Positions 8-50,447 of a stretch of DNA of 64,000 bases are shown here, in pieces. The stretch lies in contig CAYSKO010000008.1 of the NCBI GenBank assembly GCA_964431835.1, positions 26,622 to 90,621 of the forward strand, written 5' to 3'. The DNA is from an uncultured Planctomycetia bacterium. GTDB lineage: Bacteria; Omnitrophota; Gorgyraeia; 2-02-FULL-51-18. The notes beneath the pieces were generated by a model, which saw nothing but the letters and a program-made list of their open reading frames with translations, made no database searches and was not told where the DNA came from. Both the position numbers and the translations under genes were made by a program. Numbering within the stretch: position 1 is the stretch's first letter; each line of letters begins with the position of its first letter.

Positions 8-3000
8 ATGATCTCTTATCACGTGGAGAGGGGAATTCAGCCGCTCGCCGTCGTCGAGCCGCTCGCCGTGGACAACTACCTACGCGGGTTCGGCTATCGC
101 CTCGCCGACCTCGCGGCGACCCAAAAGATCGGCCTGTCGGGTGGCCGCATCGTTGTAGCTCCGGACGCCGCCGTGCCGCTCACCGAAGATGGGGACGTCG
201 AATACGACACCGCGGACATTCCTCCGCTCACCCCGCGCAACTTGAGCGCGTGGCTTCCGAAGAAGGACGCGTACGTGAAGGACGCAGCGCGGGCACAGGC
301 GATCATCGACGCCATCGCGCGCGCCGACGGAGGGGACGTCTCCCTCGTTGACTCCGGAGCGACCTGGGACACCTTCGAATTGAAATCGCAGCCCGATCTT
401 GTTTTCAAAATAACGAAACTTTCGCCCGGCTTGACCGATTCCCGTTTTTTCTTCGAGGCTCAAGCGGCTGAAATGGGACGTCTGGCCAAAGGAGAAAAAG
501 CACTCACCAAGCAAATTGGAGGATTCGACCTTCTCTCCATCCCGGGTTTCGCGCCGTTCGTTTACGCGGAAGGTTTTTCCAGCGAAGCCGACAGGCCGGT
601 GGGACTCCTTATCCAACAGAAAGGTTCTTACGCTGCGGACCGTGAACTCGACCGCGCACGTACCGCGGCCGAAAGCTCGGGCGTCCAGGGCGGCCCGCTG
701 CGGGCGTCCGACGTCAAATTGGTCGGCGGCCGCGCGGTGGTGGCCGACTTCGACCGCGTGATTTATTCCGGCGCACGTATGTCGGACGCGGCGCAGCGCG
801 TGGAGATTCGCACGTTCGCGGCCGGTTATCTGGAAGGCCGCCCGGACGCCGAGGTCATGCGGAAGCTCGTCGACGCGTACCTGGCTTTCGAGAATCCGCG
901 CAGGGACGCGATCTACAATATCAGCATTGCGTATTACGACGGGATCAATCGCATCCCGGCCGACGCGGAAACGAAAGCGCAGTTCGAGGCGCTCCTGGCG
1001 ATTCTCGAGACCGACGTGAAGCCGCGCGCCGAGGCGGTCAAATATAAGGAACGCCGAATCAACTTTATCGCCAATACGCTGGGGCCCCTTTTCACCGCCT
1101 TCGACGGGCGAGAAGCCACCGCTCCCGAGGCTGCTCCTCAGAAAGCTATTGAAACTCTCGATAAGGAGTTCCGTGCGGGCATCGCCGACTGGCTCACATC
1201 GAACGGCGCTCCGTTCGATGTCGACGTCGCCCGGTGGAACGCGGCCTCGGCGACGGCTGATCCTTCGCTCGCTCCCGAAATCCGCGAAGAGCTCGCCGAT
1301 CTCAAGCTTGCGAAAGACGTCCTGGCGGCCAAAACGGCGGAAGGCGATCCGCGGGAGACCTTCTCCGCTGCGCTTCGTTTCGCGCGGGTCGCTCAAGGCG
1401 CCTATCAGACACTCCTCGGAAAAGCGGGCCGGCGCGGACTTGTCGCGGACACCGCGCGTTACGGCGGCACCGGCGAACTCTTCGGGATTCTGCGGCTGGA
1501 TTTCGGCGGCGACGAAATCCGCCGTCTCGCCGTGCAGCATTCCGACGCGGCCGCTCCGGACGCGATGCGCGTCCTCATACTTTCGGAGATACTCGATACC
1601 CTCGAAACGCTCGACCCCCAAGCGATCGCCGACGACCTCGGTCTGACGGGGGGGCTGAACGTATCCGCATTCCTGAGTGACAAACGCGGCGCGGGAGACG
1701 CTTTATACCGGGCCTACACCGCCCTCGTGACTCTCGGGAAGGACGACGCCGGGCGACCGTTCACGTTCGGAGACATGTCTCCCGAAGCCAAAACCTTCGT
1801 CCGTCAGAGTTTCGGCCGCCATTTCCGCGCGGCGCTCGAGGAATCGGTTCTCGGCAAAAAAGGCGCCATCGGTCAGGAGGGTCTGGCAAGGATCGCGGTG
1901 ATCGACGTGCCGAGGCGTGCCCGTCTCGAAGCGGTCTCGGCCGGTGCGCGCATGGCGGACTCGATCGATTGGGTCGGCCCGTTCCCAGCGTCCGTAAAAC
2001 CCGAGAAACGCGACGCGGTCGCCGCGGCGCTCGTCGACATCGCCAACGGTGCCGACGTGACCGATTTCCGGTTCCTCGCGCACGCGCTGCGTGAGATCGG
2101 CCTCGATCTTCTTTCGGCCGACGCCGCCGCCATCGAGCCGGACGATATCTACGAAACCTTCCGAACCATCCTCGCACGCGCCGCCGCGGGCAAGCTGGGC
2201 GCCGGGACGATGTCGAACGCGCGCAACTACATCCATCATTTCGACGCGATCGCCCCCGCGCTCGCGCGCCTTGCGTATGAGCTTTGGACGGATACAGATC
2301 AGGGCGCCGTCGGGGGTCTTAAAGGCGGCTTGATCGGATCGATCCTCCGGGCGAAGCCCGACACGACGTTTTCGGACGTCGGAACCCTGCCCAAAATGAA
2401 CCAGCTCGATACGGGCAACTTGGATTCTCCGCTCCTGCCTTTCCGCGCGTTGAACGTGCTCGCCGCCGATTCGTCGGTGCAGACGATGTTCGCCGTTAAC
2501 GAAAGCTTCGAGCGGGCGCTTGTGGACGTGCTGACACGTCTCGCCGGTCTCGACGCGGAAAGGCTGACCGAAGCCACCTTTAGGGATCGCTTCGCCGAAG
2601 AAGCGGCCCGTCCGATCGCGGAGCTTGACGGACGCACGTTCAACACGATCTACGCGGAGACGCTCGTCGAACTGGACGAGCGGGCCCGCCGGATGCTCGA
2701 GCAACCCGTCAGTCTCGATTTCGCCTTTCCGTTCGAGGCCGACGCGCCGCTGGCCGCCAACATCGACCGGGTGATCAACGAGCGCTACGGGAATTTCGCG
2801 CAGACGAAGCTTCACAAGCGCTACATCATGAGCCAACTCGACGCACTCGGCGAGAGGGAAGTATCCGCACCGAAGACGGCCGAGCGTCCTTATGGACCCG
2901 CCGCGGACCTCGTGCTCGAATCGCTCGAGAAATACTGGAGGGAAATGGGCCGCCTGTATTCCCGAGAATTGCCGGGCTGGGGCGCGCTCCGCGAGATCCC

Positions 3001-6000
3001 GCTCCGGGACGCACTGCCCTTCATCATCCTTTCCGGGGAACTGCGGCCGAAGTCGTCCGACGGGATCGTCTCGCATGAGCTCGTCCGGATGTTCGGTCTG
3101 GAGCGGGAATCCGCCACGTTCGTCCGCTACGCGCGCGCGCGGGCGGCCGCGGGCGCCGAGCCGCCCGCGGATTTTCTATCCGGCCGCGCTCTCGCGGGCC
3201 TTGCGTCCGGAGCGCGCATGGCGATCACGTTCAAGGGAGTGGAAACCGGCGGCGTGCTCGATAAGGAAGGCCGGGCCATCTTCGAGAGCGTGCTCGCACG
3301 CGCGGTCTACCTGACCGGCTGGGACAATTTCGAGCTCTTCTCACGGACGCTCGACCGGATGTTCGACGCCGAGGGCCGGCCGCTCCTCAGTCTCGACGAG
3401 ATCAAGAACGCTTCCGACGACTTCCTCATCGAAAAACTGCGCGAGGGAATCGCCGGCCAAATCGACGATTATGGAGCCTACGCGCGTTCGAGCCAGCTTT
3501 TTCAGTTCGAAGGGGACTCGAATCGCTTCATTAATCCGTACGTCGGATCCGAAGCGCTCGCGATCCTGCGCGCTTTGACGTCCCTCGCGTCTTATTCGGA
3601 TTCGGCCGGCCGCTCGCCGAGAACGCCGGCGGAGATCGCGGCGGTGCTGGAAGCGCTGCGCATCGGCAGGGTCGAGGAAGGACTCAAGACGATCAAGGAC
3701 GACGCCTCGTACCGCGCCCGCGTGCGCGTCCTCGATCCGACCCTCGTCTACGCAGGGTTCATCAAAGCCGGCGGCTTCGGAGACGTCGTGAAAGTATACA
3801 AGAACGGGAAACCCCACGCGCTCAAGCTTCCTGGCGGAGCGTACATGACGGGACTGTACACCGAGGCCGATCGCCGGAACGCCGCGACGGGCATCCAAGA
3901 GACGGTCGCGTTCGCCGAGACCATCATGAAGGGGGGCGAGAAGACGGCGGAGCTTCGCAAGTTCCTGCCGGTTCTCGTCGAAGCGTTCGGAGCCGACTGG
4001 AAAGAGGGCGATACGAAGGACCCAGCGATCCTCATGGAATTCATCGACTTCGACGCGATTCCCGAAGCCGAAAAATGGATTTTTGGGGGCGCGACGCCAC
4101 AGGAGCGGCTCGATCGCCTCCGGCAGACGGCCGAAAAGTTCAGGGAGCTCCAGAGTCTGATGATCGCGAGCACGGGACAGTACATCTTCGACGACCGAAT
4201 CAGCAACTTCAACGTGGAAGTCGAAAAAGACCCCTCGGGACGTGAAGCGATCAAGCGGCTCATCCTGCTCGATTTCGGTCTCACGCGACCCTATGTCGCG
4301 CCCGAGCAGGCTACCGATGACAACCTCGCGACCACCCTCCCGATCAATCCTTTTTCCAAAACCAGCCTGATGGCGCGCGCCAGCCGCGTGCGGCGGGCCG
4401 TGCCAGAAGGGGTGTTGAGCGCAGACCAGGCGGCAGAAAAATTGAGCCAGACGGACCCTGTGCTTCTGGAATCGCTCGGCGATTTCGAGCTTTTCCCCCA
4501 GAACGAACGCGCGACGCTTGTCAAAAACGCCGATTGGACGCCGGTGATCGCGGCCGAGTGGCTCAGCCGGGAGATCGAGCTCCTGCAGTTTTTCCCGACC
4601 GAGCGCTTCGAGCACGACCTCGGGGAGATGATCTCCTCCAAGGCGGAGAATGCGATCAAATACCTTCTTACTCTGCGCCCCGCGAAGGACGGAAACGGAA
4701 AGAACAAGCGGGCTTCGGTCACGCTGCGAGAACTGGATCTGCGGATCGATGCCGTGGACGGCAAACAGGTGATCTACGCTAAGGGGCTCGAGATCGGAAG
4801 CTTGTCCGACACCGCTTACGTCCCGAACGTGGCGAACCTCGTCGCGGCGCTGGGGTCGCTCGACAACAAGCCTGCTGGAGCGCGGATGGCGGACGAGGAT
4901 TTTTCAGGAAAGGTGAAAAACGCTTTTACGTCCGCGCGACAGGCGCTCTCTTCGGAGGGGCATCTCGATGCGCAGGCGGCGGAAATTCTCGATTTCCTCG
5001 AGAGCCGGTACGCGGGCGAAGATTTCAAGGCCGCACGAGCGGCTCAGGCACGGCTGTCCGATTTGGTTTCTGCGGAGCAAGGGACGGGGCGCCGCGACGC
5101 TCTGAAAGCAGCACTCGGCTTGGTCGCGCCTATACTGGGACTCTTCGCTACGGACATCAGCGCCCGTATTGCTCGGCGCAAGAAGGAATATGCGGCCGCG
5201 CTCGACGTGAGCGCTCTACCGGCCGCGGATTTCTCGGCCTACAGTTTCACGGGAAAGACGGAAGAAAGCGCCTATCGGTTCTTCGTAGCGACCCCCGTAT
5301 CCGGAGGTCCCATCGACATTCTTAAGATCGGGGAGGTGCGCCGCGAGGCGATCTTTCTCGACCGGGTGCGCCGAGAGTTTCCCTCCGTGGCGCCGTTCAT
5401 CCCCGTATTCAAGGGCTATGGAGTGCTCACCGACGTCGACGCGATGCGGCTCGGGGATCCCACTATGAAAGGTCGCCCGTACATGATTACCAGCCGCGCG
5501 GAGGGAAAACGATTCGAGCTGACCTTATTCGAATTGAGCAAAGGAAGCATCGGGGAGGACGAGGCGCTCGGCGCTCATCTGGCCGCCGCGCGGGCGATCG
5601 CCCGGCTCCATGCCGCCGGAATTGCCCATCGAGACCTGAAGGACAGGGAAGTTTTTGTAAATCCGGTCACGGGCAGGGCGACGATCGTGGATTTCGGCAT
5701 CTCGGCGATCTTAGGGGACGCGACCCGCGGCGAAGAGGACCTGGTGAAGGGGGAGCTGCATCAGATAGGAACCAGCGTGAGCGGGCGAGGAAAAGGTTCG
5801 TTGAACCGGGACGTGCGCGCGCTCGTGAGCTTGCTGGAACAGATCGTCTTCGCCGCGAACCAGTCTGCCGGTCGAGACGGGCGCGAGTCGCTTATCCGGA
5901 GACTAGCTCTCGAAGAATTCGGTCTGCAGGCCAAAAAAGCGTTGGTGTTAGCGCAGGAAAACGACGCCGCGCCGGCATACGGCATCGGCGAATTACTGGC

Positions 6001-9457: not shown

Positions 9458-9507
9458 CCGATTTTCATAACCCTATCATTTTAAATGGGATACGGAACTC
9501 TTTTCCT

Positions 9508-9536
9508 TTGATCCACTCGCCCTCCTAGTGTATACT
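9508..9536 (+). promoter_or_regulatory. Sigma70-like promoter for giant gene B: TTGATC-N17-TATACT.
   Basis: TTGATC at 9508-9513, a 17-nt spacer, then TATACT at 9531-9536. It sits in a ~125-nt AT-rich island (9458-9582) within an otherwise ~65% GC region. A second TATAAT lies at 9543-9548. Confidence 0.5.
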
Positions 9537-9582
9537 TTTACTTATAATCGCTTAAAATAATGTTATCAGAGTTAATAAAATT

Positions 9583-21500: not shown

Positions 21501-24500
21501 CGCGTCCATCGACGAGGAACTGGGCAGCGCCTCGGTCAAACAGTCGTACGTCATGACGCTTAAGAACGGCGACCGCCGCGCGATCAAGTACGTTCGCCCG
21601 CTCGCGGAGTTCGAGATGGTCGAAAATCTGGCGATCATGCGCAACGCCATCCAGCGGCTCAGGTTCCGGATTCCCGCCCTGAAAGAGCGTGTATCCGACT
21701 CGCTGCTCGACGAGATCGAGAAGTCTGTCCAACGCGAGCTTGACATCCGTCAGGAAGTCTTGAGCCAGCGCGAGCTCGGCCGTTTCTCGAGAGGGGAGCG
21801 TCACGGCGGGTGGACGCTCAAAGTCCCCCGCGTCGACGGCCGTTTCGTCGGTTCGCGGTACTTCGCGGACGAATACGTGGTCGGCGAAGCTCCGAAAGCC
21901 GCGTTCATCGCCGCCGCCGGCGAAAAGACGGCCGCCGCGTTCGCCGGCCTTACGCTCAAGACGGTGGTCAAGCAGGCGCTCCTCTTTGGCAAATACCACG
22001 GCGACCTGAACCGCGGCAATCTCAAGTTTGACGTTCCGGGCACCACCGCGCACCTCATCGACTTCGGCAACACGGCGACGCTTTCCAGGGCGAATCAGGA
22101 CGCCTTCGTGCTGCTTATGGACGCTCTGGCGGCTTCCCACGCACCGGACGCGCTGGCCGCGCTGAGGCGTCTGGCGCCCGCGGGATTGTCTCCCGCGCTC
22201 GAGGCGAAAATCGGCGCTGTGGCGGTGCTGGCCGACGTTCCGGCGGGCGCGAAGATCCAACGCGTGAAAGCCGTGATTGAAGGAGAGGGCGGAAAACTCG
22301 AACCGCAGATCGACTATTTCCTTAAAGTTCTCGAGACGCTTTCTTACCTCACGGGAAACGTCTCCAAAGACCAGATCGCCGAAATCTTCGCGGCGGCGGT
22401 CGTTCGCCGCCAGCTTTCCGTCCGGAACCTGTTCACCCCGACGACCTGGAAGTTCATCTCGCGCCGCCTTTTCGGTTCGTCCGCTCCGGTTCCCGCTCCG
22501 GGCGCGCCCCTGGCTGCCGAGGGTACGGCGGAAATTCCGTCCGTGGCGGCGATTCCGGAGAGCCCGAAGGCACCGGCCTCGAGCGAGCGCGGCGATTCAC
22601 CGGTCGGGGCGCGCATGGCCGAAGCGAAATCCGCCGCCCTCACTCCCGAGGGAGAAGCGCTCAAGCTTCTTGCGCTGTACCGCATCGGCGAGGGGTCTGG
22701 CGACTCCAAGGACGCGAACCGGTTCGCTTTTTCACCCGGAGGATCCCGCCTCCTTCACCGGGATAGGGGCCGCGTCTCGGTGATCGATCCCGCGACCGGA
22801 AAAACGGTTTCGATCGAGCTTCCGGGCGGCTACGAGTGGGCTTCGTTCCGCGGCGAGAACGTGCTCTACGTGTCCTTTCAGGACAAAACCGAACGCGTGT
22901 ATGCGCTTCGGGGGAACGAGATCGTGCAGACCATCGAGGATGAAGACGAACCCGTTTTATCGGCGGGAGGCCTGTTGAGCGTCGGCGGGGGCCGGTCTCT
23001 CTCGTTCTCCGACGACGGAAGTCTCATCTTGGTGGTGTCGGACACCGGTTACTCCGTCCGTCTATCTTCTACGGGGGAGACGCTGGCGATTCCCGACGCG
23101 CGAAAACCCAAGAAGGTGGAGCTGTCGGGAAATTACGTCGTCGTGAGCTTCGACGGCGGCCGCCATGCGATTTACCTCGTCGCGGAAAACAAGTTGTCGG
23201 TCGCTCTCACCGACGATGTCCTCGGAGTCCCTTCCATTGAAAGAGGCTACGCGTACGCCGTTCCTGCCGACGGAAGGGCCCGTGTCTGGGAGTTGGTGAC
23301 CGGCCGCCGTGCACTCGATTTGGAAGGAAGAATCAATCAGGTTAAAATTCTCGACGGGCGGTGGGCGGTCACTGTCGGAGCCAACGACGATACGGCGAAG
23401 CCGGGCTCGCTCGAGATGCAGCTTTACGACCTTCGGACGGGCGAGAATTTCGGAAGGAAGATCGCGCCGGAGGCCCGCGATTTCGCAGTCGACGGGAACG
23501 GCAGGTACGTCGACGTCTTCCTCGAAAACGAAAGGCGCCTGTTCGACTCCGAGACGGGAGCGGATCTAAGCCCCGTCGTTCGCCCCGGATACGACGAACT
23601 CTCTATCCGTGGGAACCGCGCGCTCGTTAAATACGGGCCGGCCGCCCGGATGAACGCGTTCGACGGACGGTACGAGACTTTGTACCGCCTGATCGATCTC
23701 GAAACGGGCAAGGAAATAACGGTCGAAGGGCTCGAAGCGGCGCAGCGGGCAACTCTCGCGCCCGACGGCTCTGCGCTCATTTTTAGAAATGCCGCGTCGG
23801 ACTCGATTCTTGCCGACGTGTCGGGAAAGACGGTCGACCGTTTCGGCACGGCGGGCCGCAAGCTTTACTCGGCGGGTTTCCTGCCGTCGGGCGTCGTCGA
23901 AACGAAAGACCAGAACAACAGGTCCCATCTTTTCGATCTGAAGACGGGCAATTCGCTCGATTCTCTGACGGGGCCGCAGGCGACGCAGCCCGTCGTGTCG
24001 TCCGACGGAAAGCGCGTCGTGGTCATGGATTCCAGCCGGTATTTCCGCCTGGTGGACATCGAGACGATGCGCCGGAATCCCGTTCTCGCTCCGCACGCGG
24101 CCAGGTGGGGCCGGAGCGCCCACTTCGCGCTCGAAATCCTCGCACAGCTGAAACGCGAAGGCCGCTTGGACACCGCCGCCGATCTCGAACGCCTCTTGCC
24201 GCGCGTGACCGAAGCGATCGAGCGTTACGAGGCGGCGGTCACGGATTACAACCGCGACCGCGTCGTGGGTCTTTTCCTGGACGGCAACAGCGTGCTCAGT
24301 GCACCGGTCCTCGAACGCGTGACGGCGAGCGGCGGCGACTCACTCGAATTTTTCCTTTTCTGCATCGAGCTCATGGAATCCGATCGCCGCCTAGCTTTCC
24401 AGATCTTAGACGGCGTCTTCACGGCGGCCAAGAGCGAGGGGCTCGCTTTCGAGGAGAATTCCGCAGTCACCGCGAAGCTCCCCAACGACGAGCGCGAGCG

Positions 24501-27500
24501 GATCCGGCGTTTCGTGGCGCTTACACGCAATTTCAACCCCGAGCTTTACCGCTATTTCCTTGCGACGAGCGAAGCCAAGCTGAAAGAGCTTCTTTTGTTC
24601 TCCGAAAAGATCCTTTCCGACGAAGCGGGAATGCCCGAGATCGAGGCTTTTCTGGCTCGAGCGGCGGGCGAGAAGGACTCCAAAGGACGGCCGTTCGACG
24701 GCGAGCAGCTCCTCTATGCCGTGGTCCAGCGGGCGATCCCGCCTTCCGGCGCTTCGTTTGTCCGGCAGACCGAAGCGCTCGGACTCATGAAAAAATACCT
24801 CGAAGCGGCTCGCGAACGCGACCCACGCGGAGACGTTCCGACCTCGCTCAAAGCCCTCGGAAGGTTCGGCGGCGGCGAAGTGCGGCGCATGGTCTGGCGC
24901 CGCCGCGCGGACGCGGGCGACACCTGGAGCCCTGAAGTGGCGGCTCTGATCGACGCGCTCCGGTATCCCGACGCCGCGCGTCCGACGGACGAGCTTAAGG
25001 CCGTCGTCGCCTCCGACCGCGCGCGCCTTTCCGCCGCGCTCACGGATTTGCTCAAGGATTTCGATAACGACGCCAAGCGGGACGAGGCGCTCGCGGCGTT
25101 CCTTGCGCACGCTGCCCACAGCGACGCGCTGAAAGAGAAGGTCGACCGGATCCAGACAGGAGAACGTGCCGGGCTTCGCGCCCTCGACGAGCTCTTTTTC
25201 GACAAGGACAATCTTGCGATCCTCCTCAACGAAATCCTCGCTGATTTCAATCTCGAAGGGGAAGGAGCCGTCCGCGATGGCAAGCGGCTCGCCCGGTCGT
25301 TGGGCTCGATTTGGGCCCTCCCGCTGGGCGAAGGCGCCCGGCGTGCGCGGCTCGGGATCGCGCTCGCTCCCGTGCGAAACGACGAGGTCCGGTCGAAGAT
25401 TCTCTCTGCTCTGCCGGACGTCCCCGGACTGCGCGCGGAAGTCGAAAAACTGCTCGACTCTCGCGTGAAGCTGCCGGGCGGTCTGATCGACCGTCTCTTC
25501 GAGAAACCGCGGGCGGCGATCTCCCTGGAGTCCGAGCGCTACGTCGAGATCCCTTCGGACAAAGCGGTCCGTGTTCGTTTCCAGGTCGTGAAGGGGCCCT
25601 TGTACGGGATGTGGGGCTTGAACGCGGGCGTTTGCATCGCGGCCGACGTCGCTCTCTGGAAGAGGCCGGAATTCTTCCTCCTGGCGATGATCGACGAGGA
25701 AACCGGCAGCGCGGTCGGGTTCACTCATCTTTTTACCAAGGATTTCGAGGTGGATGGAAAGACGAGCCGCCACCTGACGGTTCCCGGCATCAATCCGAGC
25801 ACGGAAATCCTCTCCGAAGTCCGCGCCTCGGAGCTTTACCCCATGGTCGAGGGGGCGCTCCGAACCGTCGCCGCTGCGGAGGGATACGACCAGATCGATC
25901 TACCGACGGACAAGAACGTGCTTTCGAACCGCAGCGACATCGTCGATCAGGCGGTCCGCAGCGGTTACGACAAAGACGACCTGCCTGAGGAGGTGGGTTG
26001 GAACTCCGTGCCGCAGCCTTACCCCTTCAAGAACGTTTTTGTGATTCCCAAGGGCGCGCGCATGTCCGGAGAGGCCCTTTCGCCCGAAGCCCGTACGGCC
26101 GCTCTCGCTTCGCGGCTCGAGACCGCCTTCCGATCGCTCGGCGAGAGCGCTCCCACCGGCGTGCGTCCCGACACCTTCGCGTTCTTCCGCAGCGCGCGTC
26201 CGACCGCGTTCGACGCTTTCGCCCGCCGTGTGGTGGAGAGTGACGACGCCCTCCTGGACCTGCGTTCGCCCGCCGTCGTGAGGATGGTTTTCCCCGTGAA
26301 AGGACGCGACAGCGTCGTTGTCCGCGTCGGCCGCGAAGGCCTCGATTTCCAGCAAGGCTCCGTTTACAAGATGCTTCCGATCGAGACCGGCGGCGCGACG
26401 AGGATCCCGTTGTCCGGCGTCCGGGCGCGCGACCCCGACGGAACCGTAAAACCGCTCTTCGATTTCCTTGCGGACTTCGGGGTTCCCGCCGAGACCGTCG
26501 CGAAAGCCCGGCTCCAGAGCCTTTCGTTCGAACACGGTTACCACCTCGAAATCGCGGCGGACGGTTCCCTCTCTCTTCCGGACCGCACGACCGGAGACGT
26601 CCAGCGCGCGCAGCTGCGCTTCGACCGGGACGGCGATCTCGTCAGCCGCCATTTCGAGGTCCCCCAGACGCCATCGTCCGAGATCCGGAACGGCCGGATC
26701 GTGTCCCTGGCGGGACACACGCACGGCATCACCGGCGACGACTTCATCTCCGAATTCACGAGCATCGACGTGGGCGTCACGTCCGTGAACGTGGTCAAAT
26801 TGCTCGATGCGCGGAAGCCTGGAGATCCCGCGGCTCTCACGCTCGCCGAGTTCCTGATCACGGAGCGCGTCGTCGGTGAGTTCGAATTCCGCGCGCTGGT
26901 CGTCGAGGTGGAGCCCGATCCGTCCGACCCGAGCGTACCCGCGACCGTGCGCCGGTTCGCGCTTAAGCACGACGCGGCGACCGGCTGGGCGATCGAAACG
27001 ACCGACGACGGCGAGCCGCTCGATTTCAACACCACCGTCGCCGAGCTGCGGGAGGACGTCGAGACGGGCGCCCGCATGGCCGACGAGCGGAAGGCCGAGC
27101 TCGATTATTTCTTCGAGGAGAACTTCATCACCTCCGGCGCCGTCGCCGACGGGAGCATCTTCGACAAGACGCCGATGGAGGTCGTGCACCGCTCGTTCGC
27201 GGAGATCGAAAAGCTCCGCCCGCTCCGGGACGCGCATTACCTGTCGATCGGCGCGGGCGACCTGCGCGACGCGTTCACGGCCGCGTACGTCCACGGAATG
27301 CGCGTGACGGCGATCGAAAAGGACCCGCGCGTGGCCGCCGGAAGCCGCGAGATTCTCGGATTCCCCGACGCCGCGAAGTTTCATGAAGACCGTTTCGAGT
27401 TCAAGGAAGGGGACGCGCTCGCCGAGTCGTGGAGCGACAAGGACGTCGTCTCGTTCTTCTACACGGAGCCGCCGAGTCTCGCGGAAGCGGCCGCTTTCCG

Positions 27501-29487
27501 CGCCCGCCTCGCCGAAAAAGCGAAAGAACTGCCCCCCGGCGCCGTGTTCGCGCTTCTTTTCACCGGCAAATACTTCGACGTCGAGCTCGGCCTGGATTAC
27601 GTCGCGACAATTCCGTTCGTCGCGCCGCGCTACGGCCGCAGCGAATTGCGTCTCTACGCGGCGCCGGCCGCCGGCGCCCGGATCGCAGACGATCCGTTCG
27701 CTACCGAGTTACTCGCGCTTTCCGCGGGAGAGGGCTGGGAAGCCGGGGCCGCCCGCGCGGACCTCGCCGCCCGCGATTCCGGGCCGACAGCGTCCCTCGA
27801 CCCGGCCGGCGCGCGCCTGACGACGCCCCAGGAAGCGCTCGCCTTCGCGGCGGCGGCTCTTGCGGTTGCGGGCGATCCGAAAAAACTTCCTGCGGGGACC
27901 ACTTTCCACAACGCCATGGGACAGTCCGTCTCTCCGAGGACGGTTTCGCCCTTCGAATACATTTCGGGATTCGCGGGTACCGCCCGGACTCCGCGGAGCG
28001 GGGAGCCTTCCGACGTCTTCGTTCTCGGCGAATTCGGCTACCTGACCGTGGACACCGCCGCGCATCCGGGCGCGACCGTGACTTCCTATAACTACCGCAT
28101 GTGCATCGGCGTCGCTGTCCAGGCCGTCGACGCGAACGGCCGCGTTCACGTGGGCGTGTACCACCGCCTGCCGCGTCCGAAACTCGACGAAGCCGTCCTC
28201 GACGTCTTCCGGTTTTACTCGGACAAAGGCTTCCACGACGTGAAGATGACGGTGCTGTACGCGAACGATTGGCAGGATTACGGCGCGGTCCCCCAAAAGG
28301 ACGTCGCCAAGGCGCTCGGTAAAGAGCTCGCGGCCCGGAACGGTGGCGTGCCCGTCTCGCTGCGCCTGGAAACGCATTCGCATTGGGACGTCGCGGTGCT
28401 CGCGGCGACGGCCGAAGGCGCCGCCGTCGTGACTCCCGCCACCGGCGTGCGTTACGCGCCCTGGGGGACGTCGGCCGCGCGGCTGGCCACGGCCGAGGAG
28501 CCCGCGGAATCCCTGCTCGCGCCGGCGAACGCCTCTTATCCGCGCCTCGACGCGGACGAAACGCGCGTGCGGACGGCCGCTGGGGCACTGGCGGCTCTCG
28601 TGTCGCGCATCCCGTTCGGCCGGAACGCTTTCGCCATGGACGTTGACGGAGTCGCCGCGACGGCGCGGCGCGAAGGGGAGACGGTCGTTTTTTCCTCCGC
28701 CTCGGGAGCACGGCTGGCCGCCGTCCCGATCGAGCGCGAGTCCGCCAAAGCCGCCGCCGCGGTCAAATCCATCCCCGACTACCTCAGGGAATTCGACGGC
28801 GCCACAACCCGCGTCGAAGAAGCCATGCTTCTCGCCTTCGGAGCCGAAGGCTTGGAGACCTTGACGGCCGAGCCCCGCTCGATCGCCATCGACATCGGCG
28901 TCCTTCCGGCGAAGCGTCCCGAGTACTTAGAGAACCTCTTCGTCCAGCTTCTTGCGATGCGCGCGCGTCCCGTGGCCGCCAACGTCTCGTTCCGCCTGAC
29001 GGGCCCCGGCGTCCAGGAAGCGCTCGCTTCGTCCGACTTGGCACGCCAGCTCGTACGGAAGGGAATTATCGACCAGACGCCCGATCCCAAGCTTAAGACC
29101 GCCGAGATCGCAGGTATAAACCGCATCGAATCCCTCTCAGGTGAGACCTACCTGCCTTTCCGGGCGGTCGAGATCACGGACAAGGAAGCGGGAGTACCGA
29201 AGTGGCAGGCGATGATCCTTCTTGCCGTCATGGCCTCCGAGATCGGGAAGAAGACCGAAGACCCCGTTCTCCTCAGGCAGTTCTACGAGGCTTACCGCGA
29301 CGTCTCGGGCCTTTCGGTCGAGAAGCTAGAGCCTGCGAAGCTCCTAGAAGCTTTAAAGGCGTTCCTCACGGGTACGGCATCCAAATCCTTGGCCGAGGAC
29401 TACGCGATGCGCGCCGCCCCCATCGACATCAACCGTATCATCCAGCTCTTCAGCAACATCAAGCGCATTGTGGCGTCGGCCGCTTGA
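9583..29487 (+). CDS. Giant multidomain secreted protein B (6634 aa, ~720 kDa) with a signal peptide. Modules include TraB/TIKI-like, degenerate GGDEF-like, APH-like kinase, PI3/4K- or HipA-like kinase, JAMM/JAB, M48-like HExxH peptidase, UbiB/ABC1-like kinase, beta-propeller and SAM-MTase-like, plus the shared C-terminal module.
   Basis: ATG at 9583 to TGA at 29485-29487, one 19.9-kb frame with high GC3. N-terminus MTPSGKRILRPIALLLALIFAFEEAAKA/AP is Sec-signal-like. HGDL at 13681-13692 with DFG at 13777-13785. DAKMKHLLLVND...FVGIDSE at ~15310-15405. JAMM HNHPSG-x-PS-xx-D at 16180-16221. HEAGH at 17923-17937. UbiB motif VGVKFGQQVLG at ~21367-21430 with HGDLNRGN at 21997-22020 and DFG at 22060-22068. 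MTase motif I LSIGAGDL at ~27238-27270. Nine G-A-R-[MIL]-A/S motifs. Confidence 0.85.
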   Translation: MTPSGKRILRPIALLLALIFAFEEAAKAAPISAPPTLDAQAALCADPSSLIVPFESAVLKEIHRGTNGRFVIHIQDAHSNLSGQRNLAAALDSILSSHGVRLVLSEGGADDCSLTPFKKAASKEVWKKVAKTLLVQGQISGEEYLNLTTDRPMKIVGVEDIALYLKSVEHYASLADGREQLLSHLREVRASITRMKARLYPSDIMEYEAAKRAGGSQEADFKALVALASARGESLQDFPEIRRLAATVAREAEIDFELANLEQAALAERLSRAGRPESLRESLEDAAHAGTEKVSQHLRVRALIRSAEEAKVPKADYENLSRYAAYLSDFSEVDLDGVLDELAKAEDRVYYAALPSEDARLLRALDRYATLLETAYSIRMSTKDFAQFRASEADFATIRWQAFLNRRLADAGDFGGMIPQTDLLDRGRRSLEEFYASVTERDFAFVRNLEKTMADEGEKAAVLITGGYHTPHLKKLLREKGYSFAVLTPVVLAETSQQKYESRLLAPLRGRGARTVETVSGQGTAGGSLADLGGEFSRPGKNDGVRAMLLRALASSDESPLNFSQDDLETIRAIRATMQNTFRSVLEAAVVDSLRARNAGLSLEEARPRAKGVVEAIFRELDAPRPAPKAAPARALDSAPRTAEAPYTTAAARMSSEVRAAERAAEFWAENERQKAGAFDLVRGQDKAWVGYSDMMKLGLRDRHYGKLAADYFIIDAISIAQRSLASSGVFAYRLGSGDDVVSMAFPESFDGDRVETALADVQVALETEYRSMAFAVLPPGLPTAALDALSEDESVRTVDFRPYYSNGTADGRPHPQILFKLAEGETHRQGLDRLLAAATLAPGTGDVLEVRAPLLPAAAVRLQAPELRTAQPEKSIEASLKAGELRQSALREMGALVGTEETVAAPQRAKENPLYGDTVNAGVESALAEIRARMNADTDPALPVEREYATYERVALFRILGEARKDRSGTPKLKTVRGPPDNFFFVSSDGKGGWQILLVRESVVALEHDGTLENAFLKNRRESGREGDYERKFGFKQVNDVFGHFAGNQLLKLGSLNLQNSFSEASASSGGLMGLEDVFRATFEAMSRVNEVVAEKGFKIEYDASTALTSAEFPADVESPAILLVLEKLAAARRSVTVESRPEFPGVAIRVYGTENKSTWSQIEEELAEVAAYRAHRAGLELERAHAQIREPRASVAAKNSVPAGARLSIQEVFGEDAPDVLEFVAGTRDLDAVLELLMGEPRRAGDRITTGYAVTLRTQAGPVQRLFFVKKLKSDSSLMRRFQTDEHELAQEAEIATRASRIGHSPSTRFFRFRSGTPGLVTTAAGGESIYRMFVRSEPSDPVRLVLEAAAEALADLHFRAGITHGDLVHPGLEDDLRADHIFWRRDADRIAVEFIDFGLANDKATDGQKAEELRKVVHAVSEYIPRRPDRAALVRAFSEAYEARREGIRNETAGARMALPWSPKSGTGILRFDLERRLPADLPVVRVTDKGLERPAFAGTSAETLLENPALATLLRAEGYEYLTGPQLRSRSFLEGLAAQTAREDLRLYLNQRLVYGVPRAVYARRHSPAVNAAARRVTAQLFRSVVRVHPQSAQMLVPVVADLLSRVPENQLESFLEETPFADTHEKALPFGVVRLVPFLVEWSRTLSEVSAAARGDAIPVQPLLSAGLLMDAGKLGPETVAYALERVRAKWINLGRPVNTTALFALEYAIEAALDAREPRSAAETEFAALERNFRAIDRQLESEPKWLGFAGLLRTKTIGFEGSEYRLRDAEIVAARGRNPVLVLKYDNPQKGELPILLKWTQVRKAKYDRIATRTASLLGLFSYRAQPLRDHADFLRSEWEVVQYRPHELVAFTASDSNAPARQKFVLNQPSFRRMIAAADAPRSNPLRDLGAHFFLQHLLGVRDAKMKHLLLVNDARLGENNNRFVGIDSELLFHYNEALDHVNFTDDGRRPPLTPARLNDVPRVLQPNGDQREFMRRIGAEADGARYLGRVIEGFKNAHETARSKREEILRLVRENVEPGRYEAIRAEVERRLDAPAEIALEEVGLATEAFLPAFRESGARVAAAADSSEAARNAYASFRENEIARIVREARTFRARLFAAAMRLALRTGSSPLSRAMLWFVPVGTTALLDLGPDLAASIGALDRAGYGRFADEIGLYRLRGTGRWLAIRGGRDYFPVRGDFAYELFDVFIHNHPSGHALPSLGDVAAHYNTETEGTPFALIAAGNEWLSFDARALQTGGYFKADQYTVYDLNEKLGKALRTKLGREGLVDLSDPVSLAASREAMGGLGIAIRSVLPSELSDNVVGAAPEPFALLGSTDPRTRYQALSILDRALPQGLAADIFQAFHTDTDVRVQMYALGILSMRIRNDFQALRRAVQPFRNSPFERVKEQAAYIGGSETESPSGARMAGDDWAERFPENLRPVFSRMSPAGRIRVDREIEAYRLLSGRAWLEMVDEIDAWKRGDGILDFHVNAEAIKKFGVYLYLGRRHTQVSPGDKRDRGVALEFATLTQVDLSPASPPRPAPGTVFSPPDATSKTAFGYVDLREHRPVRAWAVGMSTTAVREMLRENGLDIPVRKWREGKTEPNPEALYHTVSETLWPYVAMTGALLSGMEAQRRQSLETVVIQEAFPGRLSEYLEPEEEAQALAVVQAIVAESYSPTPGRVSGARIATTAQAPKTPEQSRRLEAIARTTGATPDNEIVATVRKLAFDAAKNLGLPSEQYAFVLSDSDEINAFFYTADGERVIQFNWGLVQFLHENGILNQAVIEFILGHEAGHSLDIDHSKRDPAARHLQLASEYSADEHGLTANDRSGRTPLGGLLLMRALRRHGKDGGISITYPQTHRREYKILNDIRHRYWENLTTSPEPIDAEPSSFERSRRYQMDSKMYGRLTFERLEEAVELAETPHDVLRLTHLYEKLLSVETVLRTLADGTVGRGAIKNNRWQSFDDFDLNNMEKRGEGAFVERYLRDNGVSPEDYFNDKQKDAIRQWAAKNGMDFRDALFMALSDLANRSLGEFRYATSKNEGRLQPYSSIQPTSDVGPDGQSTFKEPLEFWRMKQARHRELQPLRAKFEARAKVAFGGSALGEADRDRLVTDFLLGGLRYLDQEPADFTPYSVTKIDPDDGYESQDYVYPKPADAVADLAWDDPLAALQDVFRNYRSYENNYVKTRSSKDPAYKAYASDEYSAVQAMKVHHDKLIEDLLGKIGPETSTERLLELYATFHEYYRLMPYSVGGYSKDKQTEQYGFDILKRLSERLATVEEFVSVVPRLAKLVPNKYDSSELAKTWFSKAQTVDELLGALDTLLSEPRLRGGTLKALAAFEENAVRIASAADWSKTKPALALVEGLTATLERHGLDPKKTERREEWPLAAAKAAASLIRLTQSNRSNEVFHGELVVRYYTRFYDGKSPYGRPGAAIRVDYPQTRFLYSENELLRHLEGVFYDKVKALRFFFGNGLPPTAGLLYDLKAENREEMFGLFLANEEAYLRNGMPQEEFDRLLCIFAWEWFGPGRGSSVERLRAFTARLRRSPVNAEFLRAFDGAGYNVQESKEGDPKFEAAAEIAEKIGHDAVGSYYAYFGGYEEYKDPTKDKRREHGLERRSYAPLWATDGRDPRKTDEIRAGNDLYEAWAFAHMGASIEERIAWLVRFHPEPTPYRNGLLLKLVGDPFTAGPAVFAPVLPHLAPDRITDILNRRVLQARKAAGELSFKTYAEVKAVIDAHFPEDSEIGRELFFGWLQNARITPVELNGLRETGALSRLAGDKKKKVAHEIIERMGDDMERQSVEEKREVYLWLAGLAPKPTLIEYYEFTSKTDLDDLPRLLAAGTEAERYAFLTTLLVGDSGVLSDPVQRADLMKTLFEAGTGEKAEASNTRFAVLEEVFEACPEHKQFDILHGALGHFQESSGTAAVSSEALTKRFLTSFGLVGVKFGQQVLGIEDLSDRVPPLDKRYLLNAILHDGGMELLDDVASIDEELGSASVKQSYVMTLKNGDRRAIKYVRPLAEFEMVENLAIMRNAIQRLRFRIPALKERVSDSLLDEIEKSVQRELDIRQEVLSQRELGRFSRGERHGGWTLKVPRVDGRFVGSRYFADEYVVGEAPKAAFIAAAGEKTAAAFAGLTLKTVVKQALLFGKYHGDLNRGNLKFDVPGTTAHLIDFGNTATLSRANQDAFVLLMDALAASHAPDALAALRRLAPAGLSPALEAKIGAVAVLADVPAGAKIQRVKAVIEGEGGKLEPQIDYFLKVLETLSYLTGNVSKDQIAEIFAAAVVRRQLSVRNLFTPTTWKFISRRLFGSSAPVPAPGAPLAAEGTAEIPSVAAIPESPKAPASSERGDSPVGARMAEAKSAALTPEGEALKLLALYRIGEGSGDSKDANRFAFSPGGSRLLHRDRGRVSVIDPATGKTVSIELPGGYEWASFRGENVLYVSFQDKTERVYALRGNEIVQTIEDEDEPVLSAGGLLSVGGGRSLSFSDDGSLILVVSDTGYSVRLSSTGETLAIPDARKPKKVELSGNYVVVSFDGGRHAIYLVAENKLSVALTDDVLGVPSIERGYAYAVPADGRARVWELVTGRRALDLEGRINQVKILDGRWAVTVGANDDTAKPGSLEMQLYDLRTGENFGRKIAPEARDFAVDGNGRYVDVFLENERRLFDSETGADLSPVVRPGYDELSIRGNRALVKYGPAARMNAFDGRYETLYRLIDLETGKEITVEGLEAAQRATLAPDGSALIFRNAASDSILADVSGKTVDRFGTAGRKLYSAGFLPSGVVETKDQNNRSHLFDLKTGNSLDSLTGPQATQPVVSSDGKRVVVMDSSRYFRLVDIETMRRNPVLAPHAARWGRSAHFALEILAQLKREGRLDTAADLERLLPRVTEAIERYEAAVTDYNRDRVVGLFLDGNSVLSAPVLERVTASGGDSLEFFLFCIELMESDRRLAFQILDGVFTAAKSEGLAFEENSAVTAKLPNDERERIRRFVALTRNFNPELYRYFLATSEAKLKELLLFSEKILSDEAGMPEIEAFLARAAGEKDSKGRPFDGEQLLYAVVQRAIPPSGASFVRQTEALGLMKKYLEAARERDPRGDVPTSLKALGRFGGGEVRRMVWRRRADAGDTWSPEVAALIDALRYPDAARPTDELKAVVASDRARLSAALTDLLKDFDNDAKRDEALAAFLAHAAHSDALKEKVDRIQTGERAGLRALDELFFDKDNLAILLNEILADFNLEGEGAVRDGKRLARSLGSIWALPLGEGARRARLGIALAPVRNDEVRSKILSALPDVPGLRAEVEKLLDSRVKLPGGLIDRLFEKPRAAISLESERYVEIPSDKAVRVRFQVVKGPLYGMWGLNAGVCIAADVALWKRPEFFLLAMIDEETGSAVGFTHLFTKDFEVDGKTSRHLTVPGINPSTEILSEVRASELYPMVEGALRTVAAAEGYDQIDLPTDKNVLSNRSDIVDQAVRSGYDKDDLPEEVGWNSVPQPYPFKNVFVIPKGARMSGEALSPEARTAALASRLETAFRSLGESAPTGVRPDTFAFFRSARPTAFDAFARRVVESDDALLDLRSPAVVRMVFPVKGRDSVVVRVGREGLDFQQGSVYKMLPIETGGATRIPLSGVRARDPDGTVKPLFDFLADFGVPAETVAKARLQSLSFEHGYHLEIAADGSLSLPDRTTGDVQRAQLRFDRDGDLVSRHFEVPQTPSSEIRNGRIVSLAGHTHGITGDDFISEFTSIDVGVTSVNVVKLLDARKPGDPAALTLAEFLITERVVGEFEFRALVVEVEPDPSDPSVPATVRRFALKHDAATGWAIETTDDGEPLDFNTTVAELREDVETGARMADERKAELDYFFEENFITSGAVADGSIFDKTPMEVVHRSFAEIEKLRPLRDAHYLSIGAGDLRDAFTAAYVHGMRVTAIEKDPRVAAGSREILGFPDAAKFHEDRFEFKEGDALAESWSDKDVVSFFYTEPPSLAEAAAFRARLAEKAKELPPGAVFALLFTGKYFDVELGLDYVATIPFVAPRYGRSELRLYAAPAAGARIADDPFATELLALSAGEGWEAGAARADLAARDSGPTASLDPAGARLTTPQEALAFAAAALAVAGDPKKLPAGTTFHNAMGQSVSPRTVSPFEYISGFAGTARTPRSGEPSDVFVLGEFGYLTVDTAAHPGATVTSYNYRMCIGVAVQAVDANGRVHVGVYHRLPRPKLDEAVLDVFRFYSDKGFHDVKMTVLYANDWQDYGAVPQKDVAKALGKELAARNGGVPVSLRLETHSHWDVAVLAATAEGAAVVTPATGVRYAPWGTSAARLATAEEPAESLLAPANASYPRLDADETRVRTAAGALAALVSRIPFGRNAFAMDVDGVAATARREGETVVFSSASGARLAAVPIERESAKAAAAVKSIPDYLREFDGATTRVEEAMLLAFGAEGLETLTAEPRSIAIDIGVLPAKRPEYLENLFVQLLAMRARPVAANVSFRLTGPGVQEALASSDLARQLVRKGIIDQTPDPKLKTAEIAGINRIESLSGETYLPFRAVEITDKEAGVPKWQAMILLAVMASEIGKKTEDPVLLRQFYEAYRDVSGLSVEKLEPAKLLEALKAFLTGTASKSLAEDYAMRAAPIDINRIIQLFSNIKRIVASAA
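28764..29483 (+). repeat. Copy 2 of the 720-bp perfect direct repeat (shared C-terminal module of giant protein B).
   Basis: Identical to 8734-9453 (compared line by line). Confidence 0.9.
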
Positions 29488-49053: not shown

Positions 49054-50447
49054 TCCGGGGGTTCGACGACGACACGATCGCCGCGATCGCGACGGCGCCC
49101 GGAGAAGGCGGCATCGGAATCGTCCGCTTGTCGGGCCGCAGTGCTCTCGAGATCGGCGACCGCATCTTCCGCGCGAAAACCGGTACGCCCGTGTCCCGTC
49201 AGAAGAGCTTCGCTGCGCGCTATGGTCACGTCGTCCGGGAGAGCGACTGTTCGTCGCGGGCCGTCGACGAGGCAATTGCGCTCGTCATGCGTGCCCCTAA
49301 AAGCTACACCTGCGAAGACGTCCTCGAGATCCATGCGCACGGCGGCTCGGCGGTGCTGCGCGAGGTGCTCGATCTCGCGCTCCGCGCGGGTGCACGTTTG
49401 GCCGAACCCGGAGAATTCACCAAGCGCGCTTTCCTGAACGGTCGTCTCGATCTGCTCCAGGCGGAGGCCGTGATCGACCTCATCCGTTCAAAGACCGCGC
49501 TCGCTCGGCGCTGGGCGTCGTCCCAGCTCGAAGGCGCTCTTTCTTCGCGTGTGCGCGAAATACGAGACGCGCTCGTCTCGGCGCTCGCTCGTCTCGAGGC
49601 TTCGATTGATTTTCCCGAAGACGCTCCCGAGGCGGACGCGCCGCCCGAGGTCGTGCGGGAGCTCGAATCGGCCGCGGCGATCCTGGCCGAGCTCACCGCC
49701 GGCGCCGAGTGGGGCAAGCTCCTGCGCCGCGGACTTTCGGCCGCCATCGTCGGCCGCCCGAACGTGGGCAAGTCGAGCCTCCTCAACGCGCTGGCAGGCG
49801 AGGACCGCGCGATCGTGACTCCGCACGCCGGTACGACGCGCGATGTGGTAGAGGCCGAGATTCAAGTAGGTGGTTTTCCGCTGCGCCTCTCCGACACCGC
49901 AGGCCTGCGCGAAACCGATCATCCCGTCGAACGCGAGGGGATCGCGCGCTCGAAGCGCGCGGCTTCCGGCGCCGAAATCCTCCTTTGCGTGTTTGACGCG
50001 AGCCGTCCGCTCGAACCCGAAGACCGCGCATTCTTCGATTCCTACGCGGACCGCGAACGGATCGCGGTCCTCAATAAAGCCGATCTCGGCATGAAGATCG
50101 ATTCCGCCGCTCTCACCGGGCCCGGCGTGCGCGCGGTGGTGGCCTGTTCGACGTTGCACCCGGATGGCATCAAGGTGTTAGAGGAGGAAATTTATAGATT
50201 CGTAGTGGGCGGCGAAGCCGAGATTCCCGAAGACGCCGTCGTCAGTTCGGTACGCCAAAAGGAGCACTTGGACCGCACGGCCGCAAGCGTCCGCGAGGCG
50301 CTCGCCTCCTGCCGGGCAGGGCTCTCCCCAGAGCTGACGGCGGTCGATGTGCGTGTAGGACTCGACCACTTGGGGCTTTTGGTGGGCGAAGTGGTGACCG
50401 ATGACGTCCTAGACGCCCTTTTCGGACGTTTCTGTATCGGAAAGTGA
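49047..50447 (+). CDS. mnmE: tRNA modification GTPase MnmE (TrmE).
   Basis: G1 motif IVGRPNVGKSSLLNAL, DTAG and C-terminal CIGK. N-terminal domain DTIAAIATAPGEGGIGIVRLSG. Confidence 0.9.
   Translation: MVIRGFDDDTIAAIATAPGEGGIGIVRLSGRSALEIGDRIFRAKTGTPVSRQKSFAARYGHVVRESDCSSRAVDEAIALVMRAPKSYTCEDVLEIHAHGGSAVLREVLDLALRAGARLAEPGEFTKRAFLNGRLDLLQAEAVIDLIRSKTALARRWASSQLEGALSSRVREIRDALVSALARLEASIDFPEDAPEADAPPEVVRELESAAAILAELTAGAEWGKLLRRGLSAAIVGRPNVGKSSLLNALAGEDRAIVTPHAGTTRDVVEAEIQVGGFPLRLSDTAGLRETDHPVEREGIARSKRAASGAEILLCVFDASRPLEPEDRAFFDSYADRERIAVLNKADLGMKIDSAALTGPGVRAVVACSTLHPDGIKVLEEEIYRFVVGGEAEIPEDAVVSSVRQKEHLDRTAASVREALASCRAGLSPELTAVDVRVGLDHLGLLVGEVVTDDVLDALFGRFCIGK

Follow-up and report, generated by a model that had tools for sequence, protein, structure and literature searches.

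The DNA analysed here, called the window, is a stretch of 64,000 nucleotides from the genome of an uncultured Planctomycetia bacterium that GTDB places in Omnitrophota. According to the listing of its open reading frames (ORFs), the first 29.5 kb of the window consist of two giant ORFs, both on the forward strand, as are all features of A and B described below. Protein A (8–9457) is a C-terminal part of 3,149 residues whose ORF is open at the window start, and protein B (9583–29487) is complete at 6,634 residues. Both are punctuated by a recurrent pentapeptide, G-A-R-[M/L]-[A/S], which is the subject of this study. Protein A is 100% identical to residues 2889–6037 of P0059, a protein of 6,037 residues in the public protein collection, which has its own N-terminal TIKI-like domain, 46% identical to that of B, and five more motif sites upstream of the window. 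It follows from this identity that both genes encode proteins of ~6,000–6,600 residues.

In a motif scan, protein A showed GARMS at residue 255 (770–784), GARMA at residues 646 (1943–1957), 1068 (3209–3223) and 1624 (4877–4891), AARMA at residue 2015 (6050–6064), and GARLA at residues 2763 (8294–8308) and 2876 (8633–8647), the last copy lying immediately upstream of the near-identical C-terminal module described below. GARVA at residue 2364 (7097–7111) is a variant, whereas SARIA at residue 1718 (5159–5173) and AARVT at residue 2055 (6170–6184) are weak variants that may be due to chance. In protein B the first site past the N-terminal domain is AARMS at residue 651 (11533–11547), which ends a low-confidence coil of 26 residues. 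It is followed by GARLS at residue 1206 (13198–13212), 27 residues past the end of a module shared with the relative P0001, GARMA at residue 1457 (13951–13965), the variant GARVA at residue 2067 (15781–15795), GARMA at residue 2413 (16819–16833), GARIA at residue 2675 (17605–17619), 34 residues upstream of an M48-like domain, and GARMA at residue 4342 (22606–22620), 159 residues past an ABC1 domain. GARMS at residue 5491 (26053–26067) coincides with the end point of the homology blocks of the preceding module, and GARMA at residue 5829 (27067–27081) and GARIA at residue 6031 (27673–27687) mark the start and the end of a methyltransferase-like module. The remaining sites are the variant GARLT at residue 6076 (27808–27822), AARLA at residue 6298 (28474–28488), 6 residues before the start of the module shared with A, and GARLA at residue 6375 (28705–28719), immediately before the near-identical C-terminal 240 residues. 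All coordinates given for the motif in a first-pass annotation of this DNA were correct, save for a 2-nt shift in one GARLA of A (8294–8308, listed as ~8296–8310). The copies it named all exist, but it overlooked the GARLA at 8633–8647 as well as GARLS, AARLA, GARLT and both copies of GARVA.

Two further occurrences were noted. A degenerate element, K-N-D-G-V-R-A, lies ~30 residues past the N-terminal domain of B (11203–11223); the pattern K-x-D-G-V-R-A is semi-conserved, with GARMA, GARFA or GARVA at the aligned position of some relatives, and may represent a degenerate first site. Outside the two giants there is only one copy, a GARLA at 49389–49403 in an mnmE-like ORF, which is compatible with chance.

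The excess of the motif over composition, claimed in the first-pass annotation, was confirmed. GARM was seen nine times in the 9,783 residues of A and B where 0.108 copies were expected (Poisson 5e-15), and GARMA seven times against 0.015; they are the top-enriched 4-mer and 5-mer of the two proteins. In 2,000 residue shuffles of A and B the count never exceeded two. The form [GA]ARM[AS] is confined to the A and B ORFs in a six-frame translation of all 64 kb.

Conservation was found at the level of the peptide and not of the DNA, in agreement with the earlier remark that codons differ between copies. The window copies vary in their codons, and 255 instances in relatives comprise 170 distinct 15-mers in which both Arg, both Leu and both Ser codon families are used. 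Restricting the alignments to those with 60% identity or less gives 54% identity in the motif columns, as compared to 22% in the 25 columns on each side. The flanks, with ~0.1 bit at each position, show a mild polarity from −4 to +11. For large parts of A and B no homologue is detectable, yet the motif is kept. No homologue was detectable among 5.8 billion clustered proteins for residues 240–1080 of A (725–3247) or for the last 345 residues of B (28450–29484), and in these orphan stretches only the pentapeptide is recognisably conserved. G-A-R-[M/L]-[A/S] is thus a short linear motif under selection that acts on the peptide.

Position of the motif between modules

Pfam scans of A and B detected only Pkinase (weakly, in A) and Peptidase_M48 and ABC1 (in B). 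The kinase-like stretch of A (residues 1823–1905; 5474–5722) lies within a module bounded by the motifs at residues 1624 and 2015. In B, the M48-like metallopeptidase module (residues 2714–2809; 17722–18009) has an intact HEAGH at 17923–17937, and the ABC1 atypical kinase-like domain spans residues 3945–4183 (21415–22131). HEFAH occurs in A at 7823–7837, so zinc-metallopeptidase-type motifs are present within the cargo part of both proteins.

Structure prediction placed the motif in regions of low confidence. In an AlphaFold model of residues 1–700 of B, the N-terminal domain (residues 40–510) has a predicted local distance difference test score (pLDDT) of ~90, and residues 627–654 fall below 50. 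A predicted coil linker of 26 residues (623–648; 11449–11526) leads into the first motif (residues 651–655). In a model of residues 1480–2128 of the relative P0012, motifs at local positions 38–42, 310–314 and 323–327 all have pLDDT below 50. They separate a CheR-like module from the C-terminal module, and pLDDT is low even where the alignment spans the motif. Across 13 proteins, none of 77 sites fell within any of 19 Pfam envelopes, where 8.8 were expected (P ~9e-5). As examples from relatives, a receiver domain at residues 1087–1180 is flanked by GARLA at residues 1050 and 1222, and a J domain is followed by a site 8 residues past its end. In 72 of 114 proteins, the first site comes 50–150 residues past the GGYHT of the N-terminal domain.

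The edges of shared modules also lie at or near motif sites. Residues 650–849 of P0001 match residues 1515–1735 of P0012, with motifs at 652 and 1517, and P0004 from residue 2296 matches P0024 from residue 2206, with motifs at 2298 and 2208; in all four proteins the block starts 2 residues before the motif. The module past the first site of B matches P0001 from 8 residues before this site to 27 residues before the next one. An exhaustive HMMER search with residues 5435–6634 of B against 1.84 billion representatives gave three sets of blocks bounded by motif sites: the first ends at GARMS 5491, the second spans GARMA 5829 to GARIA 6031 and the third starts 11 residues before AARLA 6298. At least 20 relatives have a conserved family C-terminal module of ~366 positions, and in 12 of 15 proteins G-[AS]-R-[LMF]-x stands ahead of it in the same alignment column. 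A global comparison of homology-segment edges with the nearest motif yielded a noisy histogram that defied interpretation, with a few families prevailing in it, and the individual module matches and the HMMER blocks were used instead. Our data show that the motif marks flexible linkers between unrelated enzyme-like modules. The earlier statement that it falls between recognisable domains was hence borne out by the Pfam envelopes and the low-pLDDT linkers.

The motif and its replacements across Omnitrophota

A search with residues 1–1600 of B returned 57 proteins which share only the first 500–600 residues with B and then continue into diverse enzyme domains. The named relatives are mostly labelled Candidatus Omnitrophota or Omnitrophica. 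At least 554 relatives of the N-terminal domain, with many paralogues per metagenome-assembled genome (MAG), were found in a scan of one genome per species. The family sample used here consisted of 80 genomic loci (L001–L080) fetched from Omnitrophota MAGs that carry such relatives. In these loci GAR[LM][AS] occurs 217 times in 175,079 residues of ORFs with the N-terminal domain and 23 times in 15,901 residues of giant ORFs that directly continue them, as compared to a single copy in the 167,563 residues of all remaining ORFs. In the family tails, GARLA was seen 106 times where 0.45 were expected, and GARMA 16 times where 0.08 were expected. The modules between the sites, which are spaced by a median of 308 residues, include methyltransferases, HAD, DnaJ, FBPase, transaldolase, PGM, LMWPc, HATPase, receiver and PEP-utilizer domains.

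The logo from the relatives reads [S/A/D]-G-A-R-[L/M]-[A/S]-[E/D/A/G], with Leu in 185 and Met in 41 instances. The preferred form depends on the genome: GARLA prevails in most, the Met form in this window and a few MAGs, and AARLA in some. The motif is retained in genomes from 40% to 66% GC, and paralogues within one genome share one motif type though their N-terminal domains are only 34–53% identical to that of B. GARIA and GARLA, regarded in the first-pass annotation as near-variants, do exist as listed but are true members of the motif; GARLA is the canonical form of the family and GARMA a lineage preference. Residue shuffles, overlap with folded domains and absence from orthologues had been named beforehand as possible refutations. 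All three were examined and none refuted the idea; far from being absent from homologues, the motif was found across the phylum.

Two observations concern the sampled loci themselves. Many carrier MAGs are titled 'uncultured Planctomycetia' or 'Candidatus Eisenbacteria', and others Elusimicrobiota; as the proteins of Planctomycetia- and Eisenbacteria-titled MAGs group with Omnitrophota-labelled ones, the bins may be mislabelled. The window's own proteins match a JGI metagenome contig and an NCBI protein. In locus L030 (9977–20293), one relative ends in ...GSGARLAGPIVESSKQ-stop, 9 residues past a motif, and an ORF of 2,012 residues with four more motifs and without N-terminal domain starts 3 nt past that stop. 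This arrangement reflects either a real split at a punctuation site or a sequencing error.

Some relatives lack GAR[LM]x, and here another, strongly over-represented pentapeptide occupies the same place. This became visible with the methyltransferase-like module of B (residues 5829–6030; 27067–27672), a module delimited by homology blocks that recurs in many long proteins. It looks like an S-adenosylmethionine (SAM) methyltransferase because its relatives share LLDFGAGD. In P0070, P0082, P0087 and P0099 the module is flanked by GAR[LM]x; GARMA, GARLA, GARLS and AARLA are among the forms recorded at equivalent flanks of this module family. In proteins without GAR[LM]x it is flanked by RSEVR (P0067, P0061, P0063 and P0066), RSELR (P0083, P0097 with 14 copies, and P0110), RSEQR (P0081), RTST[AVL]D (P0096, 12 copies) or GAMHE (P0108, 7 copies). 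The upstream copy lies 2–13 residues before the block in 9 of 10 cases, and 37 residues before it in P0082, whose block begins further into the query. On the other side, a copy follows 37–51 residues past the block. ARFTE, with 6 copies in L066 (9716–19441), is a further replacement, one without a tie to the methyltransferase-like module. The named proteins among the carriers of replacement motifs belong to Candidatus Omnitrophota, and P0067, P0081, P0096 and L066 carry the same N-terminal domain as B. P0042 was seen to carry PSMNP[GR][GS]SSG. The comparison points to a general phenomenon of 'punctuation' with lineage-specific codes. Uniformity within each genome, replacement between lineages and a fixed position together suggest a site that is read by a common, co-evolving factor, rather than a structural preference.

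The N-terminal domain and possible functions of the motif

Both window proteins, as well as every relative retrieved via the N-terminal domain, have a signal-peptide-like start followed by a conserved domain of ~470 residues. In B, the signal-peptide-like N-terminus (9583–9669) consists of basic residues, a hydrophobic core at residues 8–26, which is the sole transmembrane-like segment of the protein, and AAKA-AP. The conserved domain (residues 40–510; 9700–11112) was modelled as an alpha/beta fold with a central parallel beta-sheet as in the TIKI/EreA/ChaN/TraB superfamily. Fold comparison gave scores of 9.6 for BcR135 (2rad) and TraB (8bqs_DQ), 9.5 for ChaN (2g5g) and HopBA1 (5t09), 9.2 for a succinoglycan biosynthesis protein of the BcR135/136 type (2qgm), 9.1 for EreC (6xcq) and 8.3 for RRSP (5w6l). 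EreC, BcR135 and ChaN were also near the top of a Foldseek search with the model, none of them significant. The domain has no sequence match in Pfam, NCBIfam or the PDB, TraB_PrgY_gumN, Cofac_haem_bdg and Erythro_esteras do not match it at E up to 10, and a profile of 22 sequences found no PDB member.

Five residues of the domain do not vary among 22 sequences: D76, H78, E106, R441 and H469. In RRSP, an endopeptidase of the TIKI family, E3900, H3902, E3930, R4001 and H4030 are each essential for Ras cleavage (PMC6254334). Matched by pattern and spacing, D76-A-H78 of B (9808–9816) aligns with the E-x-H of TIKI, E106 (9898–9900) follows H78 after 28 residues as E3930 follows H3902, R441 (10903–10905) compares with R4001, and H469 of GGYH (10987–10989) with H4030; the distance from Arg to His is 28 residues in B and 29 in RRSP. 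The signature is kept in relatives with replaced motifs, namely in P0096 (RTST type, with D-A-H) and in P0067 (RSEVR type), where the first acid, Asp in most members, is Glu (E-A-H). Unlike other members of the superfamily, the domain of B has a helical insertion of ~290 residues between the two halves of the active site, and in this family the domain is joined to a signal peptide and to modules that extend over kilobases. On the basis of the model and the signature, we consider it probable that the N-terminal domain is a TIKI-superfamily hydrolase. It also occurs on its own: L071 (9905–11542; 546 residues) and L076 (5379–6938; 520 residues) end in real stops without a module tail, and such stand-alone domains could act in trans. 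The search for a cognate protease, suggested in the first-pass annotation, thus yielded a candidate built into the proteins themselves, with the M48-like module of B and its intact HEAGH as an alternative.

The first-pass annotation had supposed a conserved cleavage or docking site which releases or organises the modules. The inter-module signature is established; cleavage is suggested rather than demonstrated, and docking agrees with nearly all of these data. Of the possible readings, that of a polyprotein has the strongest support, and we regard the chances that the motif is the cleavage site of a sequence-specific protease as about evenly balanced. Such a protease, encoded in the same genome, would recognise the pentapeptide and cut the polyprotein into separate modules. 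The scissile bond would probably be [L/M]-[A/S] and the new N-termini Ala or Ser. This bond is favoured because large hydrophobic residues at P1 and small ones at P1' are a frequent combination, and because Ala and Ser N-termini are stabilising, whereas a cut past Arg would expose Leu in most lineages. The best candidate for the protease would be the TIKI-like N-terminal domain, acting in cis or in trans, since no other element is conserved throughout the family; alternatives would be the M48-like module of B and an unlinked enzyme. Cleavage with the N-terminal domain as the protease is a tentative assignment, and cleavage by another protease is fainter still. Tiki1 reportedly cuts a Leu-Ala bond. 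In its full form the reading would have exported polyproteins cut at genome-specific pentapeptides by their own TIKI-like N-terminal endopeptidase, site and specificity co-evolving, and in this form we hold it to be possible rather than probable. The label 'effector' is suggested by the signal peptide in combination with cytoplasmic-type enzyme modules, and we infer that the modules act outside the producer cell.

Several points weigh against the cleavage reading. Doublets of motifs 13–60 residues apart are common, and in at least 10 GARLA-type proteins the motif recurs 4–14 residues from the C-terminus, where a cut would free a mere tiny peptide and a recognition tag would suit as well or better. 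Fewer than three copies of any recognised motif were found in 39 of the 96 tallied proteins with the N-terminal domain (at least 1,200 residues long). The occurrence of one motif type across diverged paralogues of the domain fits a single separate reader at least as well. Esterases and a haem-binding protein belong to the superfamily as well, and in the signature of this family Asp rather than Glu is mostly found as the first acid. Finally, a Sec signal would place ATP- and SAM-dependent modules outside the cytoplasm, a puzzling topology. Delivery into another cell would explain this topology and fit the predatory or parasitic lifestyle proposed for the phylum (PMC10066038), but this is speculation.

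The same observations bear on the alternatives. The motif might remain uncleaved and serve for recognition or docking, with a single common partner that binds or modifies it, such as an export or translocation chaperone, an anchoring protein, a module-organising scaffold or an Arg-modifying enzyme. Restriction to the family, peptide-level selection, linker position and genome-specific motif types apply equally to this possibility, and the near-C-terminal copies and doublets would be unusual in a release site but come naturally with a multivalent tag; the single motif type across diverged paralogues of one genome also speaks for it. However, no partner was identified, the family-wide domain has an invariant hydrolase-type signature that suggests chemistry rather than binding, the large hydrophobic residue followed by a small one resembles a scissile-bond pair, and the known short consensus repeats at junctions of unrelated domains, in viral polyproteins and MARTX, are cleavage sites. 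We keep an uncleaved motif as a serious possibility without thinking it likely. A purely structural linker element, i.e. a helix start or turn without trans-acting reader, would agree with the B 1–700 model, which places the motif at a passage from coil to helix, and with the mildly polar residues adjoining it; the P0012 model, in contrast, shows very-low-confidence coil and no defined element at the motifs. This explanation leaves unaccounted for the near-identity of ten or more sites within a genome, the virtual lack of the motif in neighbouring proteins and the presence of very different pentapeptides (RSEVR, RTST, GAMHE, ARFTE) in the same places in other lineages, and we judge it very unlikely.

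Even less credit can be given to a signal at the nucleic-acid level, be it a recombination site for module shuffling, an internal start or the relic start codon of fused genes. Modules are indeed shuffled between proteins exactly at the motif, 3 of 11 window copies read GGAG-N5-ATG like a ribosome-binding site with start codon, and a Met with Ala or Ser next to it is a typical start of a protein. Third codon positions are free, though, both Arg and both Leu families are used, and no DNA or RNA is conserved beyond the peptide, nor does the window contain an Rfam family. Leu, encoded mostly by CTG or TTG, is far commoner than Met in the relatives, and the motifs of other lineages have neither Met nor Leu at that place (RTST, GAMHE). 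Relic start codons and internal initiation were hence rejected on the predominance of Leu and the codon variation, and a DNA repeat or recombination site on codon diversity. Chance, or an artefact of composition in an Ala-, Arg- and Gly-rich protein of a high-GC genome, could appeal to the abundance of these residues in A and B (13.9%, 8.6% and 7.2%, respectively), but it is refuted by the observed counts and the shuffles, by the persistence of the motif in relatives with 40–50% GC and by the lack of [GA]ARM[AS] in other frames and genes of the window; it retains next to no probability.

Among known systems, a comparison with CPD sites of MARTX toxins had been drawn in the first-pass annotation. 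The MARTX CPD cuts past Leu before a small residue, which resembles [L/M]-[A/S]. In MARTX toxins, an internal protease cuts the regions between the effector modules and so sets these free (PMC6315884). The proteins studied here are similar in being one very long chain, predicted to be secreted, with unrelated enzyme modules and unstructured linkers that carry short sites, and in having a protease, here a candidate only, within the same polypeptide. They differ in that Pfam scans of A and B showed no RTX repeats and no Peptidase C80 domain, so the comparison, though the nearest working parallel, stands as an analogy only. Furthermore, the candidate protease is N-terminal and TIKI-like, whereas the TIKI-fold domain of MARTX (RRSP) is a cargo effector, and the five-residue consensus changes between lineages in a chromosomal, highly paralogous Omnitrophota family. 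With viral polyproteins (picornavirus 3C, coronavirus main protease) they have in common a short consensus at junctions of unrelated domains, flexible linkers, unconserved flanks and a consensus that differs by lineage while its position is kept. Unlike these, they are encoded by cellular, bacterial chromosomal genes with many paralogues per genome and mostly orphan modules, and their cleavage is putative.

A further parallel is provided by the giant and long proteins described from Omnitrophota ('Archaeovorin', 'Dockerin-type', 'multi-enzyme metabolic cluster'), which by the GTDB placement of the window come from the same phylum, comprise thousands of residues and have an N-terminal signal peptide. 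Here, too, many unrelated enzyme families (methyltransferases, PGM, receiver, NUDIX, HAD, kinases) tile one chain. The window proteins, at 6,037 and 6,634 residues, are smaller than the giants of more than 30,000 residues and fit the 'multi-enzyme' class of long Omnitrophota proteins (bioRxiv 10.64898/2026.06.07.730766). Cleavage into several products has been proposed for the giant and long proteins, with C39 or S8 peptidase domains as processing enzymes (bioRxiv 10.1101/2023.11.21.568195; 10.64898/2026.06.07.730766; PMC10066038), and the cleavage points are stated as unknown in the 2023 preprint (bioRxiv 10.1101/2023.11.21.568195). These three papers mention no punctuating motif, cleavage site or TIKI-like N-terminal domain. 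A full-text literature search for GARMA gave nothing relevant, and no paper describing the motif was found. A comparison with C-terminal sorting signals (LPXTG, PEP-CTERM) was negative: most copies are internal, and the C-termini are [SA]A without a transmembrane helix.

With the motif, a concrete candidate is available for the first time for the points at which such giant proteins may be cut or recognised. Whether these act as a single chain or as many products is a question raised for the Omnitrophota giants, to which the motif supplies exact candidate sites; with a candidate protease heading the same proteins, the question becomes directly testable. In practice, the motif can also guide how these largely unannotated megaproteins are divided into modules before their structures are predicted. 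Should cleavage be confirmed, the family would constitute a polyprotein system of bacteria that is processed by a TIKI-type enzyme, shares no descent with MARTX toxins and is represented by many paralogues in each genome across an uncultured phylum. The motif would then be an in-silico cutting rule for mature products, with dozens of fast-evolving modules released, possibly as effectors against host or prey.

Other features of the two proteins and the window

The C-terminal module of A (residues 2814–3149; 8447–9454) is 78.5% identical to that of B (residues 6304–6634; 28492–29484), and both end in ...IKRIVASAA. The last ~240 residues are nearly identical and the remainder of A and B is unrelated, which suggests a recent duplication or gene conversion of the tail. 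A profile comparison (hhalign) of this module with the family C-terminal module was not significant (probability 2.6%). The shared ending can be extended to ...NIKRIVASAA (9437–9454 and 29467–29484), and an [SA]A-COOH tail is found in most family members examined, whatever the motif type (e.g. AVGSAA, FLAAA, IAYAA); it resembles an ssrA-type degron or a PDZ ligand. An ARLA-like stretch of the C-terminal helix was considered as a further copy of the motif and rejected: among the proteins with other motifs only P0103 has its own motif there, and the [SA]A-COOH tail was therefore treated as a separate feature.

The scan of the window revealed no tRNA. A nonribosomal peptide synthetase or polyketide synthase megasynthase, a guess from ORF size, was ruled out since the Pfam scans of A and B showed no such domains. 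Downstream of the giants, the window carries housekeeping genes, e.g. aconitase, a deoxyhypusine synthase homologue, purH, trpE, mnmE and accA. Finally, the window has 63% GC, but the 125-nt spacer between A and B (9458–9582) stands out as AT-rich. This spacer probably contains the promoter and leader of B, in which case A and B are likely to be expressed separately.

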